DNA from: a virus
IMG/VR virus record: IMGVR_UViG_3300045988_138996
Coordinates: 1 to 64,000 of that record
Strand: one strand, 5' to 3'
Length of the DNA: 64,000 nt
The first letter of the stretch is position 1. Each line of letters starts with the position of its first letter. The notes beneath the pieces are model-generated. The model searched no databases, was not told where the DNA came from, and saw only the letters and a list, made by a program, of their open reading frames with translations. Shown here piece after piece: positions 29,313 to 32,798 of the stretch. Both the position numbers and the translations under genes were made by a program.

Positions 29313-31493
29313 ATGAATAACAAAATTTTATTGACAGGTTTAGTATTGGCGTCTTTAGCAAGTACAACTATGGCAGCTGGTTTAGATAATACTGTAGATT
29401 CTACAGCAGCACATTATGGCGCCGAAGCTTATGGTTATACTAATACAATTACTGCAACTGGCAGATCTGCATTTGTAGCTGGTTATAACAATACTGTAAG
29501 TGCTAACAATGCATTAGTTTATGGTATTGAAAACAAAGCAGAAGGTATTAATAGTTTGGTTGGCGGCGAATACTCAAAAGCTACCGGTAGAAATTCTGTT
29601 GCAATCGGTTCTTCTGCACAAGCATTACAAGATAATACATTTGCCATTGGTTCTCAAGCAAGAGCAAATGGTACTGATGCTTTAGCCTTCGGTAATGGTG
29701 CTTATGCTGAAAATACAGCAACTGTTGCTATTGGTAAAACAGTTAAAGCAACTGAAGAAGGGGCTTTAGCTATTGGTTTTAATACAGAAGCCACTGCACG
29801 AGATGCCATTGCAATTGGCGGTAATGTGAAAGAACCTGGTGATATTCTAGCTACTCAAAAAACAACTGCATCTGGTAGACAATCCATCGCTCTTGGATAT
29901 AAAGCAAATTCTAAAGGCGTTTCTGGAATTTCTATTGGCACTAATGCTTATTCTGAAGGAAGAGGTGCTGTTAGTATTGGTAGCTGGTCTATTGCATCTG
30001 GAGATGGTGCAACAGCCGTAGGCGGAGGTCATGCTAGAGCAGACAGAGCTGTCGTTGTAGGCTCTGGGAATGCAGATGGTAAAGAATCTGTTTCTGTGGG
30101 GTCTTATTCCAGAGTATACGCTGAAGGTGCTGTTGGTATTGGTAGAAATGTTTTTATTGATGATAGTGCAACAAATTCTATCGTTGTTGGTTCTTCCTCT
30201 GAGACAATCACTAAAAAAAATGTGACCGCTATCGGTTCCAATACATATTCTGAAGTTGAAAATAGTGTAGCACTTGGAACAATGGCAAGAGCAGATGAAG
30301 TAGTTTCTACTAGCTCTGCAAATATTGCTGGTAAAACATATAATTTTGCAGGCAGTACAGCTGATGGTACAGTAAGTATTGGCGGTAAAATTATATCTGA
30401 TTATGAAACAGATAGATACGGAATGCCTATCTTCGATGATAATGGTAATATGATTCCTATAGTTGATAAAACTGCTTATCGCACTATCACAAATGTAGCT
30501 GCTGGTCGTATTAGCGATACTTCCACAGATGCAATCAATGGTAGTCAATTAAATGCAGCTGTTAAAGCTATCGAAAAGAATCATCAAGCAGCGACTGATG
30601 CTATGACAGAAGCTAAAAAACATACAAGCGTTGTTGCTGGTGACAATGTAGTTGTTACAACTGGTACAAATGCAGCTGATGGTAAAGAATATACTGTATC
30701 TGTTAAAAAAGACCTTACAGATATGAATTCTATTAACTTGGGTGCCAATACTGATTCTAAACATTCTATTGCAAATAAAGATGGTATGCATGTATTCAAT
30801 GGTGAAGTAAATACTAATTATGATTCTAATGGTATTAAAATTGAAAATACTAACACTTTAGAAACTGCTCAATATACTATGAATGGTATGCAAGCTTCTG
30901 ATGATAACGCTACTATTCGTTTCACTACTACAAACATTGATGCTGGCAATCAACAAATTCATGGCGTTAAAGCTGGTACAGCTAATACTGATGCTGTTAA
31001 TGTAAGTCAACTTAAAGAAGTAGGAAATAAAGTTAATGATAATTCTAAACGTATTGATACAAATGAAAATCGTATCAATGATTTAGATAATAAAATTAAC
31101 GATGTTGGTCGTAATGCTTTAGAACGTGCTAATCATTATACAGATTTACAAGTTAATAAAGGCGTAGCTAAAGCATCTGCTCTTGCTGGTCTTAAATTCT
31201 TAGATTACAATCCTAAAGATAAATGGTCCTTCGCAGCGAGCGTAGGCCATTACCGTAATGCTAATGCAGTTGCCGTAGGCGCCGCATACCAACCTAATGA
31301 AAACACTATGATTCATGGTGGTATTACATTAGATGGTAAAACAGCATACAATTTAGGTGTAAGTTTTAAAACTGGCGGTCAAAAACAAGTAACTCGTCAT
31401 GAATTAGAAGAACAAATCCGTCAGTTAGAAAATAATAATATTCGCATGCAAGAAGAATTAAATGAAATTCGTGCTATGCTAGAAAAGAAATAA
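29313..31493 (+). CDS. trimeric autotransporter adhesin (YadA-like head repeats, stalk, beta-barrel anchor, extra C-terminal coiled coil)
   Basis: Signal peptide MNNKILLTGLVLASLASTTMAAG; repeated S.A.G..A.A head units; ITNVAAGRISDTSTDAINGSQL; anchor ALAGLKFLDY..ASVGHYRNANAVAVGAAYQPNENTMIHGGITL; about 40 aa of heptad-like tail after the barrel. Confidence 0.85.
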   Translation: MNNKILLTGLVLASLASTTMAAGLDNTVDSTAAHYGAEAYGYTNTITATGRSAFVAGYNNTVSANNALVYGIENKAEGINSLVGGEYSKATGRNSVAIGSSAQALQDNTFAIGSQARANGTDALAFGNGAYAENTATVAIGKTVKATEEGALAIGFNTEATARDAIAIGGNVKEPGDILATQKTTASGRQSIALGYKANSKGVSGISIGTNAYSEGRGAVSIGSWSIASGDGATAVGGGHARADRAVVVGSGNADGKESVSVGSYSRVYAEGAVGIGRNVFIDDSATNSIVVGSSSETITKKNVTAIGSNTYSEVENSVALGTMARADEVVSTSSANIAGKTYNFAGSTADGTVSIGGKIISDYETDRYGMPIFDDNGNMIPIVDKTAYRTITNVAAGRISDTSTDAINGSQLNAAVKAIEKNHQAATDAMTEAKKHTSVVAGDNVVVTTGTNAADGKEYTVSVKKDLTDMNSINLGANTDSKHSIANKDGMHVFNGEVNTNYDSNGIKIENTNTLETAQYTMNGMQASDDNATIRFTTTNIDAGNQQIHGVKAGTANTDAVNVSQLKEVGNKVNDNSKRIDTNENRINDLDNKINDVGRNALERANHYTDLQVNKGVAKASALAGLKFLDYNPKDKWSFAASVGHYRNANAVAVGAAYQPNENTMIHGGITLDGKTAYNLGVSFKTGGQKQVTRHELEEQIRQLENNNIRMQEELNEIRAMLEKK

Positions 31494-31511
31494 TTATAAG
31501 GAATTAATATT

Positions 31512-32798
31512 ATGAATAAAAACAAATTTATTTTAATGTTTGCTGTTGTTTCTTGTATTGGTAGTAAAGCTATTGCAGCAGATGTAACTACTCATGATTA
31601 TTATACTGGTCAATATCCAGTAGCTGAGTCAGTTAAAAATAGTATTATTTATGGTCATGATACAAATGTTACACAAGCACATGGTCATTTAAGTGGCATT
31701 ATTGCTGGTGGTGAAAATAATACTGTTCAACTTGATGCTCATAACAGTGCAACATTTGGTATTAGTAATAATAATAATTCTGCAAATTCTGTAGTGGCTG
31801 GCGACCATAATACAATCACGAATGCGAATAATTCTATCGCTGCTGGCATTTATAATGCTAGTCATTCTAGCAATACATTAGTATTCGGTTATAATAATGC
31901 TATTAATTTCCGAAGCGAAAATTCTTTTGCTGGTGGCGAAAGAACAAAACTTACCGGCAAAAATTCTTTTGTATTTGGCGAAGATGCAGAAGTAGAAAAT
32001 GATAATACATATACTATTGGTAAAAAATCCAAAGTTACAGCTGAAAATTCAGTGGCAATTGGCAATAGCGCAGAAGCAACTATAGACAATTCAGTAGCTC
32101 TTGGTAGCAATGCAAAAACTGATACCATTGTAAATACAACTTCTATTGCAATTAATAATAATGTTTATACAGTTGCTGGTACTACTCCTGTAGGCACTGT
32201 GTCTATTGGTGATATTAATAAAGAAAAAACTATTACAAATATAGCGGCTGGTCGTGTTTCTAATACATCTACAGATGCAATTAATGGTAGTCAATTACAT
32301 GCCGTTGTATCTGAAGTAGAAAATAATACTAACGGCATTAAAATGAATGCTGACGCTATTAAAGAATTAGCTAGCGTAAGTAATAATAATGTTATTGAAA
32401 TTAACAATAACTTAAATGCTTTAGACAATAGAATTAATGCTAATCAAAAAGAAGCCCGTAAAGGCATTGCATCTGTATCTGCTTTAGCGGCATTACATCC
32501 ATTAGATTATAACCCAGACCATAAAGTAGATATTATGGCTGGTGTTGGTCATTATCGTGGCAATACTGCTGTAGCATTAGGTGTAGCATATCGTCCAAAT
32601 GGAAATACTATGTTTACTGTAGGTGCATCTATTAATGATAAAGATACAGCTATTAATGCTGGTTTAAGCTATAAAGTAGGTACTAAAGATATTCAATATC
32701 GTAGTCCAGCTTCTATGGCAAAAGATATTGATGATTTAAAAGCTATCGTTAATCAATTAGTTCAAGAAAACGAAGCTTTAAAAAATCAAAAGAAATAA
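31512..32798 (+). CDS. trimeric autotransporter adhesin, shorter paralogue
   Basis: Signal peptide; ITNIAAGRVSNTSTDAINGSQL; anchor ALAALHPLDY..GVGHYRGNTAVALGVAYRPN; a coiled-coil tail follows the barrel. Confidence 0.85.
   Translation: MNKNKFILMFAVVSCIGSKAIAADVTTHDYYTGQYPVAESVKNSIIYGHDTNVTQAHGHLSGIIAGGENNTVQLDAHNSATFGISNNNNSANSVVAGDHNTITNANNSIAAGIYNASHSSNTLVFGYNNAINFRSENSFAGGERTKLTGKNSFVFGEDAEVENDNTYTIGKKSKVTAENSVAIGNSAEATIDNSVALGSNAKTDTIVNTTSIAINNNVYTVAGTTPVGTVSIGDINKEKTITNIAAGRVSNTSTDAINGSQLHAVVSEVENNTNGIKMNADAIKELASVSNNNVIEINNNLNALDNRINANQKEARKGIASVSALAALHPLDYNPDHKVDIMAGVGHYRGNTAVALGVAYRPNGNTMFTVGASINDKDTAINAGLSYKVGTKDIQYRSPASMAKDIDDLKAIVNQLVQENEALKNQKK

Follow-up and report, generated by a model that had tools for sequence, protein, structure and literature searches.

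Two adjacent open reading frames (ORFs) on the plus strand of a 64,000-nucleotide stretch of viral DNA (IMG/VR record IMGVR_UViG_3300045988_138996, positions 1 to 64,000; this whole stretch is called the window in the following) were identified from their sequence as complete trimeric autotransporter adhesins (TAAs) of type Vc. They are located at 29313-31493 (TAA1) and 31512-32798 (TAA2). Our reading is that they are phage-encoded TAAs of the Negativicute type, which are displayed on the infected cell and change its adhesion. The probability of this reading is put at roughly 0.55.

For both proteins the Pfam families YadA_head, YadA_stalk and YadA_anchor were detected above the curated cut-offs, with 69.7, 76.8 and 39.4 bits for TAA1 and 34.6, 42.2 and 52.6 bits for TAA2 (cut-off of YadA_anchor: 22.7 bits). 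The neck motif ITN(V/I)AAGR.S.TSTDAINGSQL occurs in each of them (Table 1). TAA1 contains a second YadA_stalk/neck element and ahead of it an insert domain, which is common to TAA1 and the homologue P0039. The anchor match stops near amino acid (aa) 687 of 726 in TAA1 and near aa 389 of 428 in TAA2, leaving tails of 38-39 aa. No S-layer homology (SLH) domain was found by Pfam in TAA1 or TAA2. The two proteins are 36-40% identical and thus TAA2 is not a recent duplicate; a recent tandem duplication was rejected for this reason, and no other paralogues were found in the window.

Both N-termini were read as Sec-type signal peptides, cleaved by signal peptidase I. Inspected by eye, they show a basic start, a hydrophobic core of 12-15 residues (mean Kyte-Doolittle value 1.8 for TAA1 and 1.6 for TAA2) and an AxA-type site, a pattern conserved across the homologues. 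Cleavage is predicted between MNNKILLTGLVLASLASTTMAA and G in TAA1 and between MNKNKFILMFAVVSCIGSKAIA and A in TAA2. An extended signal peptide of the ESPR type is not present in either protein. A lipoprotein signal in TAA2 (VVSC) was considered and rejected. The cysteine is not conserved in the homologues, hence a lipobox is unlikely, and the AxA site is conserved.

The structure of the TAA2 monomer was modelled with AlphaFold2 from an alignment of 48 homologues. The mean predicted local distance difference test (pLDDT) value was 62, which is modest, as expected for the monomer of an obligate trimer. Read from the N- to the C-terminus, the model begins with a signal helix and a beta-rich head, continues with long helices at 260-326 and the four strands at 339-387, and ends in a helix at 399-426. 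With Foldseek, the modelled anchor superposed on the YadA anchor 2lme (target-normalised template modelling (TM) score 0.78, root mean square deviation 1.8 A) and also matched the AtaA transmembrane domain 9vnj (target-normalised TM 0.78). The modelled head matched the heads of UspA1, BoaA, BPSL2063 and CbpF, and AtaA was among the head matches too; a weak match in fold was obtained with the EibD fragment 2xqh. The sequence search against the PDB gave the head-neck regions of UspA1 and BPSL2063, as well as CbpF (9gh4) and the YadA anchor 2lme.

The tails of both proteins fit the 'short' type of periplasmic domain, with less than 100 residues, mainly coiled coil, and more than 10 residues past the barrel. 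In the TAA1 tail the hydrophobic fraction at heptad positions a and d is 0.78, a value reached by a fraction of 0.007 of shuffled sequences, which is significant. For the TAA2 tail the fraction is 0.67 and 0.21 of the shuffles reach it, so that the heptad signal is weak there. A core asparagine is part of the heptad pattern of both tails, as in Veillonella TAA tails.

All type Vc features tested by sequence or model were found, namely the signal peptide, the head/neck/stalk passenger and the four-strand anchor. The original prediction had described two complete tandem TAAs with Sec signal peptides, the neck motif, a four-strand YadA anchor and a coiled coil of about 40 aa behind it, and had taken them for outer-membrane proteins and not for tail fibres. 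The domain searches of both ORFs, the TAA2 model and the gene neighbourhood bear this out, the heptad signal of the TAA2 tail being weak.

Table 1 Features of the TAA genes and their immediate surroundings (positions in the window)
Feature	Position	Strand	Basis and remarks
HU-like DNA-binding gene	28711..28989	+	Pfam Bac_DNA_binding
Terminator-like hairpin with T run, 3' of HU-like gene; upstream edge of the unit	29000..29021	+	Hairpin search
orf81, small gene directly 5' of TAA1	29041..29286	+	No Pfam match
Ribosome-binding site of TAA1, AAAGGAG	29297..29303	+	Read from sequence; conserved in relatives
TAA1	29313..31493	+	726 aa; complete TAA by Pfam domains
TAA1 signal peptide, aa 1-22, MNNKILLTGLVLASLASTTMAA	29313..29378	+	Read from sequence
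TAA1 passenger head (YadA head repeats) through neck motif	29379..30551	+	Pfam, homologue alignment
TAA1 neck motif ITNVAAGRISDTSTDAINGSQL, aa 392-413	30486..30551	+	Within passenger region
TAA1 second YadA_stalk/neck element, aa 548-589	30954..31079	+	Pfam
TAA1 YadA-type membrane anchor, aa 631-688	31203..31376	+	Pfam
TAA1 post-anchor periplasmic tail, 38 aa, heptad a/d pattern LILNMLIL	31377..31490	+	Sequence, heptad test
Ribosome-binding site of TAA2, AAGGAA	31498..31503	+	Read from sequence
TAA2	31512..32798	+	428 aa; complete TAA by Pfam domains
TAA2 signal peptide, aa 1-22	31512..31577	+	Read from sequence; helix aa 3-16 in model
TAA2 passenger head, aa 23-240	31578..32231	+	Pfam, model, fold matches
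TAA2 neck motif ITNIAAGRVSNTSTDAINGSQL, aa 241-262, and coiled-coil stalk, aa 263-332	32232..32507	+	Pfam, PDB sequence search, model
TAA2 YadA-type anchor, aa 333-390	32508..32681	+	Pfam, model, 2lme/9vnj matches, PDB sequence matches 9gh4/2lme
TAA2 post-anchor periplasmic tail, aa 391-428	32682..32795	+	Model, heptad test; aligns with Veillonella TAA tails
Hairpin, 12-bp stem, TAATAGCCTCCC-TTAATT-GGGAGGCTATTA, after last TAA	32803..32832	.	Hairpin search
orf82, small acidic ORF 3' of last TAA	32854..33102	+	No Pfam match

The anchor and the tail point to the host. In a scan of 185,579 species genomes the best cellular homologues were 36-42% identical. The 14 best cellular matches to the anchor-plus-tail of both TAAs all belong to Negativicutes (35-53% identity), mainly to Veillonella and further to Megasphaera, Succiniclasticum and Acidaminococcus; the heads match more widely among cellular genomes. 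Veillonella and Megasphaera also provide the nearest full-length matches, with alignments extending through the tail. Veillonella sp. T11011-6, for example, encodes a 461-aa TAA of the same build, coiled-coil tail included. Close relatives of the phage, labelled here L with a number, extend this picture. In L115 and L121 (helicase 98-99% identical) and in the lineage of L126 and L135 (helicase 79-81% identical) a single TAA of 822-942 aa occupies the same slot and carries a post-anchor coiled coil plus an SLH domain (PF00395, 43-45 bits, cut-off 20.8). This SLH module can be aligned over its whole length (234 aa) to V. parvula TAAs, with 46-48% identity (E 1e-74).

All V. parvula TAAs carry extra C-terminal domains (Béchon et al. 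2020, PMC7549365). Published surveys report a periplasmic domain for 99.8% of the TAAs of Negativicutes, 62% of the fusobacterial and about 1-2% of the proteobacterial ones, and one of them describes the SLH-type tail in Negativicutes only; such domains shield V. parvula adhesins from degradation (Dorison et al. 2026, bioRxiv 10.64898/2026.01.22.700529). Owing to the Negativicute-type anchor, the tail and the SLH alleles, a Negativicute host is likely, and we hold this assignment with considerable confidence. Veillonella or another member of the Veillonellaceae is the most likely host within this class, with somewhat less certainty. The hint at a diderm Firmicute host in the original prediction was thus well founded. 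An anaerobically growing host also fits the class III ribonucleotide reductase encoded in the window.

The window covers the part of a phage-like genome of about 230 kb that is devoted to replication and nucleotide metabolism; this genome recurs in human metagenomes. Genes for recombination and replication were assigned with PHROGs and Pfam (helicases, primase, a split DNA polymerase, UvsX-like and Rad52-like proteins, Mu Gam, single-stranded DNA-binding protein), as were genes of nucleotide metabolism (thymidylate synthase, dihydrofolate reductase, dTMP kinase, guanylate kinase). In addition, the window encodes a split class III anaerobic ribonucleotide reductase (NrdD), radical S-adenosylmethionine proteins, which probably include the NrdD activase (NrdG), a polynucleotide kinase-phosphatase-RNA ligase, ClpP, HNH endonucleases, an IS605-type TnpB and a cluster of five tRNA genes at 50957-51503. 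Nearly all genes lie on one strand. About 10 kb on each side of the window hold only more replication-type and unassigned genes, and across the window and these ~20 kb of further flanks neither an integrase nor a repressor or partition gene was seen.

TAA2 is identical to a protein on a contig of 230,820 bp, and more than 100 homologues were found on contigs often 203-257 kb long. Many relatives are catalogued as viral in IMG/VR, with contigs of 213-255 kb. When mapped to a 229,838-bp contig of a different sample, the window spans the contig ends; the genome is therefore circular or circularly permuted. Its gene set resembles that of large virulent phages of the SPO1, 0305phi8-36 and T4 types. 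The element looks like a large virulent phage, in line with the lytic appearance noted in the original prediction; the assignment as a phage relies on the replication genes, the IMG/VR cataloguing and the recurrent genome-sized contigs. Megablast of 27000-35000 gave no match among 50,697 GenBank phage records. Tblastn of TAA1 against the GenBank phage records gave head-level matches only, in four records. The GenBank phages share distant protein similarity only, e.g. a helicase about 35% identical to that of large Firmicute myophages.

The TAA genes occupy a nearly constant slot in this phage group. Relatives were collected via the neighbouring helicase (34486-36099), independently of the TAAs, and 22 of these loci cover the slot. 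In 21 of them the order HU-orf81-[TAA]n-orf82-orf127 holds a TAA of 451-942 aa. No TAA was found within 10 kb in the more distant L136 (helicase 64% identical). Relatives found via the TAA have one to four tandem copies. A sister group (L086, L087, L093, L098 and L103; IMG/VR contigs up to about 255 kb) has two to four, the maximum being found in L087. In the rearranged genome L001 a single TAA lies at another place, and orf82 has moved along with it.

The heads are exchanged between otherwise similar genomes. The backbone shares 92-94% DNA identity with L090 and L111. This identity collapses over 29707-30579 (TAA1 head) and 31512-32231 (TAA2 head) and returns at neck, stalk, anchor and tail, with breakpoints adjoining the conserved neck motif. 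In both genomes the TAA2 head is replaced wholesale, the breakpoint lying exactly before the neck motif. L112 precisely lacks TAA2 and its hairpin, and the TAA1 and TAA2 genes share their final 13 nt, AAAGAAATAATTA. The common 3' end together with the precise absence suggests gain and loss of TAAs by recombination between similar 3' ends. L129 has an anchor 100% identical to that of TAA1, yet its backbone helicase is only about 80% identical. In L121 the N-terminus of TAA1 is joined to a different C-terminal module, so that it is found on an SLH-type allele. The anchor of L129 and the chimera of L121 indicate that the cassette evolves by module exchange among phages. Among the 48 TAA2-type homologues no clear conservation gradient from head to anchor was seen, and no region was especially conserved except the neck. 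The variation is modular and not confined to the tip.

Phage carriage of TAAs is already known, and both proteins are ordinary members of the Negativicute short-tail TAA family. The TAAs of Veillonella (V. parvula Vta family) show the same order of signal peptide, YadA head, neck, stalk, anchor and coiled-coil tail. They are the nearest cellular sequences, with 42-53% identity for anchor plus tail and 46-48% for the SLH module, and their clusters have likewise been reported to evolve by domain swaps and changes in copy number (Béchon et al. 2020, PMC7549365). In contrast, the genes of the window lie on a phage of about 230 kb and not on a chromosome. The phage TAAs are short (428-942 aa) beside many Veillonella adhesins, such as the 2777-aa neighbour in L008. 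The codon composition of the window genes agrees with that of the phage, with a G+C content at codon position 3 (GC3) of 0.13-0.15, whereas Veillonella loci have about 39% G+C. Fusobacterium nucleatum CbpF (9gh4/9gh5) is a further short TAA (~490 aa) of a non-proteobacterial diderm and, among the solved structures, the one whose sequence matches the TAA2 anchor region best (aa 292-397, E 4e-17). It differs in being chromosomal and in binding CEACAM. In the genome scan fusobacterial TAAs were poorer matches than those of Negativicutes (30% for L061 versus 36-42%).

Among cultured phages, yadA homologues of the virulent Salmonella phages FSL SP-058 and SP-076 were described away from the tail genes, beside a dUTPase (Moreno Switt 2013, PMC3728262). 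By Pfam and translation we found five cultured virulent phages with a protein that combines a signal peptide and the Pfam domain YadA_anchor. Two are Ackermannviridae (Erwinia phage phiEa2809, NW77_016; Salmonella phage SKML-39, gp201); the others are the Erwinia jumbo phage Yoloswag (gp261), Cronobacter phage vB_CsaP_009 (ORF58, Grimontviridae) and Proteus phage PM2 (gp088, Straboviridae). VriC of Ackermannviridae was rejected as a further case, being a baseplate protein and not an anchor-bearing adhesin. Given these ORFs and the yadA homologues noted in 2013, the case is less unusual than the original prediction implied.

As in the window, the annotated neighbours of these enterobacterial phage ORFs are mostly not morphogenesis genes (dexA, QueC, dCMP deaminase, sigma-70 decoy, tRNA cluster); a tail-fibre gene lies about 2.6 kb from vB_CsaP_009 ORF58. 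Their similarity to the TAAs of the window is marginal (23-31% identity over most matches, E 3e-3 to ~1). Unlike the latter, they have the proteobacterial build, in which the anchor closes the protein, F or W is the last residue and a periplasmic tail is absent. The passengers are mostly plain coiled coil or nearly absent and not YadA heads, and tandem arrays and head swapping are unreported for them. PM2 gp088 (131 aa; L146 2369-2764) and vB_CsaP_009 ORF58 (194 aa; L140 2701-3285) consist of signal peptide, short linker and anchor, and are labelled as hypothetical or tail proteins. Such mini-TAAs suggest a possible role of the barrel as such during infection by the phage.

The Eib immunoglobulin-binding TAAs of E. 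coli are carried by lambdoid prophages. They are phage-borne, complete outer-membrane TAAs which alter adhesion and aggregation (chain-like adherence by EibG), as is proposed here. In contrast to the present case, they belong to temperate phages, act in lysogens and have a proteobacterial anchor without a tail. The immunoglobulin-binding stalk motifs of Eib were not found in the TAAs of the window.

To our knowledge, several aspects are new. These are the Negativicute-type periplasmic tails on phage-encoded TAAs (coiled coil, with SLH in relatives), the near-universal presence of TAAs in a phage group that is widespread and has genomes of about 213-255 kb, their tandem arrays of one to four genes, and the swapping of head and tail modules. 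In the literature searched no paper was found on these phages or on phage TAAs with periplasmic domains, nor was a described, sequenced Veillonella phage.

We propose the following course of events. During infection the precursors would be exported via the Sec system of the host. The C-terminal anchors would trimerise to a 12-stranded barrel and be inserted by the host BamA, while the tail of 38-39 aa would remain in the periplasm as a coiled coil and stabilise the protein. The fibre of head, neck and stalk would be exposed on the surface of the infected cell and would change its adhesion to sister cells, partner species, or mucosal or biofilm surfaces. In this way the burst might be kept beside new hosts in tongue, plaque or gut biofilms. 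Phages that trade heads, recombining at the neck and the 3' ends, would retune the binding specificity. Given the architecture, altered adhesion is the most likely role, though it is suggested tentatively, at slightly below even odds. The roles put forward in the original prediction, in host aggregation or biofilm formation or in superinfection exclusion, are plausible.

Several points weigh against this reading. Every step after translation (export, display, timing and adhesive role) is inferred only, and the TAA2 model is of modest confidence. The short latent period of a virulent phage leaves limited time to gain from adhesion. The 131-aa version of Proteus phage PM2, with almost no passenger, is not explained by adhesion, which leaves the barrel as the possible active part in some phages. 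In L120, the one exception among the 22 loci and a contig of 5.2 kb, the whole block orf81-TAA-orf82-orf127 is missing, which means that the TAA genes are not strictly essential. No structural genes of the phage were seen, as these lie beyond the window and the flanks examined. The host, too, is deduced from protein architecture and similarity (36-53% identity), and one relative, L005 (USNF01000001.1, a 208-kb contig), is binned in a metagenome-assembled genome of 'uncultured Gemella sp.'. L005 is a near-complete genome of the phage group, and a fetched stretch of 21 kb has a G+C content of 0.288. Gemella is a monoderm with low genome G+C. Since the G+C is similar and a monoderm has no outer membrane, this placement is most likely a binning artefact, which could mislead host prediction.

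A wider view of phage-encoded adhesins may be drawn from the adhesion reading, though it is doubtful. Adhesins could be a near-core tool of virulent phages of diderm bacteria, matched to the envelope, with the sticky infected cell catching further susceptible cells or retaining the burst within a biofilm. If this is true, heads would be traded like receptor-binding modules and the anchor would copy the build of the host clade, with a periplasmic coiled coil or SLH tail in Negativicute phages and a bare anchor in enterobacterial phages. The cassette would then belong to the transmission and host-range apparatus and not be accessory, and it would co-vary with tail-fibre alleles.

Superinfection exclusion or receptor shielding is the alternative that survives best, although we regard it as unlikely. 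Here the fibres would cover or replace the receptor, block secondary infection, whether by this phage or by competitors, and limit the loss of progeny on the debris of lysed cells, and the diversity of the heads would be driven by an arms race with competing phages. Hypervariable genes in conserved backbones, in one to four copies, are a pattern typical of phage-phage or phage-host conflict, and the TAAs sit among replication genes of the early or middle type. The passenger-poor versions of the enterobacterial phages (131 and 194 aa) also suit blocking at the membrane better than adhesion. The intact YadA-type heads with conserved necks, however, argue for ligand binding. In addition, the outer-membrane exclusion proteins known to us (T5 Llp, Cor, TraT-like) are small lipoproteins and not long adhesin fibres.

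Less probable still are conversion genes of a carrier state, in which the phage persists for long as a pseudolysogen, plasmid-like prophage or chronic carrier and the adhesins aid colonisation by the host. Phage-borne TAAs acting as host fitness factors, such as Eib of E. coli, are a precedent, the diversity of heads could track host niches, and the relatives come from many different samples. The absence of integrase, repressor and partition genes from the window and its ~20 kb of further flanks speaks against such a state, as do the likeness to large virulent phages and the recovery of the contigs as free genomes of about 230 kb; the window covers only 64 kb of these.

Receptor-binding fibres of the virion are very improbable. 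YadA-domain proteins of cyanomyophages and some coliphages (e.g. S-SZBM1_54; PMC9146016) share YadA-type head/stalk repeats with the TAAs of the window. Those of cyanophages were reported as targets of positive selection during host adaptation and were detected in virions by mass spectrometry (PMC9146016), RefSeq labels related anchor-bearing phage ORFs as 'tail protein', and head swapping among near-identical backbones is typical of tail fibres too. The cyanophage proteins, presumably anchorless, were compared by their reported virion location only. The TAAs of the window, in contrast, have a Sec signal peptide, an anchor and a periplasmic tail (with a peptidoglycan-binding SLH domain in relatives), which would be senseless in a virion assembled in the cytoplasm. 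Their neighbours are an HU-like protein, an HNH endonuclease, helicase, Mu Gam, primase and DNA polymerase; no morphogenesis genes were found there with PHROGs and Pfam. On these grounds a tail fibre was rejected as the leading explanation.

Recent capture from a host, an assembly chimera or decaying cargo without a phage role, for which the G+C content of TAA1 (0.365 against a window mean of 0.314) might speak, is scarcely credible in view of the base composition by codon position, the distant cellular homologues, the intact reading frames, and a slot filled in dozens of independent assemblies from different samples. The original prediction had noted a region richer in G+C than its flanks and taken this as consistent with host capture. 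The first part is correct for TAA1 but not for TAA2 (0.322), and other parts of the window are equally rich. The excess is located at codon position 2 (0.45 for TAA1 and 0.39 for TAA2, ranks 2 and 3 of 60 ORFs) and therefore reflects an amino-acid composition rich in Ala, Gly, Thr and Ser. GC3 is among the lowest of the window (0.153 and 0.126, ranks 56 and 59 of 60 ORFs). G+C as a sign of capture was therefore rejected. TAA1 is 89% identical to its orthologue in L112, with a ratio of nonsynonymous to synonymous substitutions (dN/dS) of 0.23; most other genes compared gave 0.03-0.27. Judged by these sequence comparisons, TAA1 and TAA2 are long-resident, selected phage genes and no recent capture.

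The finding brings no new protein architecture, and its function is inferred only. Nevertheless, the architecture of anchor and tail assigns a host clade to these phages of about 213-255 kb, which are abundant in human metagenomes, and offers a way to a first host assignment for them. It also draws attention to an overlooked class of phage genes, complete outer-membrane adhesins that are near-universal in this group and diversified by head swapping, while comparable ORFs with signal peptide and anchor have gone unnoticed in cultured phages of Enterobacterales. In oral and gut communities Veillonella has been described as forming biofilms, and its attachment to other bacteria is important there. 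If the TAAs alter aggregation or biofilm formation, the phages would directly shape the architecture of these communities. V. parvula is genetically tractable, and assays of aggregation, surface attachment and localisation are published; the prediction is therefore testable without isolating the phage.

Regarding the surroundings of the cassette, the TAA abuts the upstream ORF in most relatives and is therefore probably co-transcribed with it. The promoter search 5' of the TAAs gave 32 promoter-like matches versus 27.7 +/- 5.5 in shuffled sequences, i.e. no excess, and Rfam gave no match in the cassette region. In the sister group a conserved hairpin (AACCATACCCAATAGGTAGGAGTATGGTT) followed by an AT-rich stretch precedes the first TAA; they may form a dedicated terminator/promoter pair for the cassette. 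A terminator of its own had been predicted for the TAA genes at 32805. The 12-bp-stem hairpin at this position is real and is kept 3' of the last TAA in diverged relatives, being absent where TAA2 is absent, but its T tract is weak on the plus strand.

In nearly all surveyed relatives orf82 directly follows the last TAA, rearranged genomes included; the exceptions are L133 and L120. It is hypervariable, with 46-47% identity and dN/dS near 1 in comparison with L090 and L111, against 87-99% identity for the remaining flanking genes. It may either act as a TAA partner or form part of the exchanged cassette.

Further observations concern mobile elements and interrupted genes. An IS605-type TnpB (OrfB) of 384 aa is encoded at 15350-16630 (G+C 0.226, GC3 0.096), and a RAGATH-18 RNA at 16553-16630 (75.6 bits) was found directly after the TnpB gene. 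The pair resembles a mobile TnpB element and its associated RNA, residing in the phage genome. Further TnpB copies occur in relatives, two in L001 and one in L142. NrdD is encoded in two ORFs (55818-56972 and 57199-58080) with a gap of 226 nt; in L145 the gene is interrupted elsewhere by an HNH_3 endonuclease ORF. These interruptions suggest mobile introns or what is left of them, although Rfam detected no intron at its gathering threshold. Two overlapping ORFs (38566-40026 and 40001-41149) encode the DNA polymerase, and a Clp-type AAA ATPase beside ClpP is divided into 3438-3941 and 4378-5010, about 436 nt apart. Among the relatives, L112 and L133 have an interrupted version of the helicase 34486-36099, and L144 has an ORF with an intein.

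A fusion of polynucleotide kinase, phosphatase and RNA ligase (742 aa, 23917-26145; T4 Pnk plus Rnl1-like) is kept in all relatives. This combination is the classic repair kit for tRNA cut by anticodon nucleases of the host. A protein of 1033 aa (47480-50581) with an N-terminal glucosaminidase and a C-terminal M23 peptidase domain probably serves as a peptidoglycan hydrolase, either virion-associated or lytic, and may be the sole morphogenesis-related gene product of the window. A Macro-domain protein (52873-53328), the ClpP protease (2869-3438) and the HU-like protein are all encoded by the phage.

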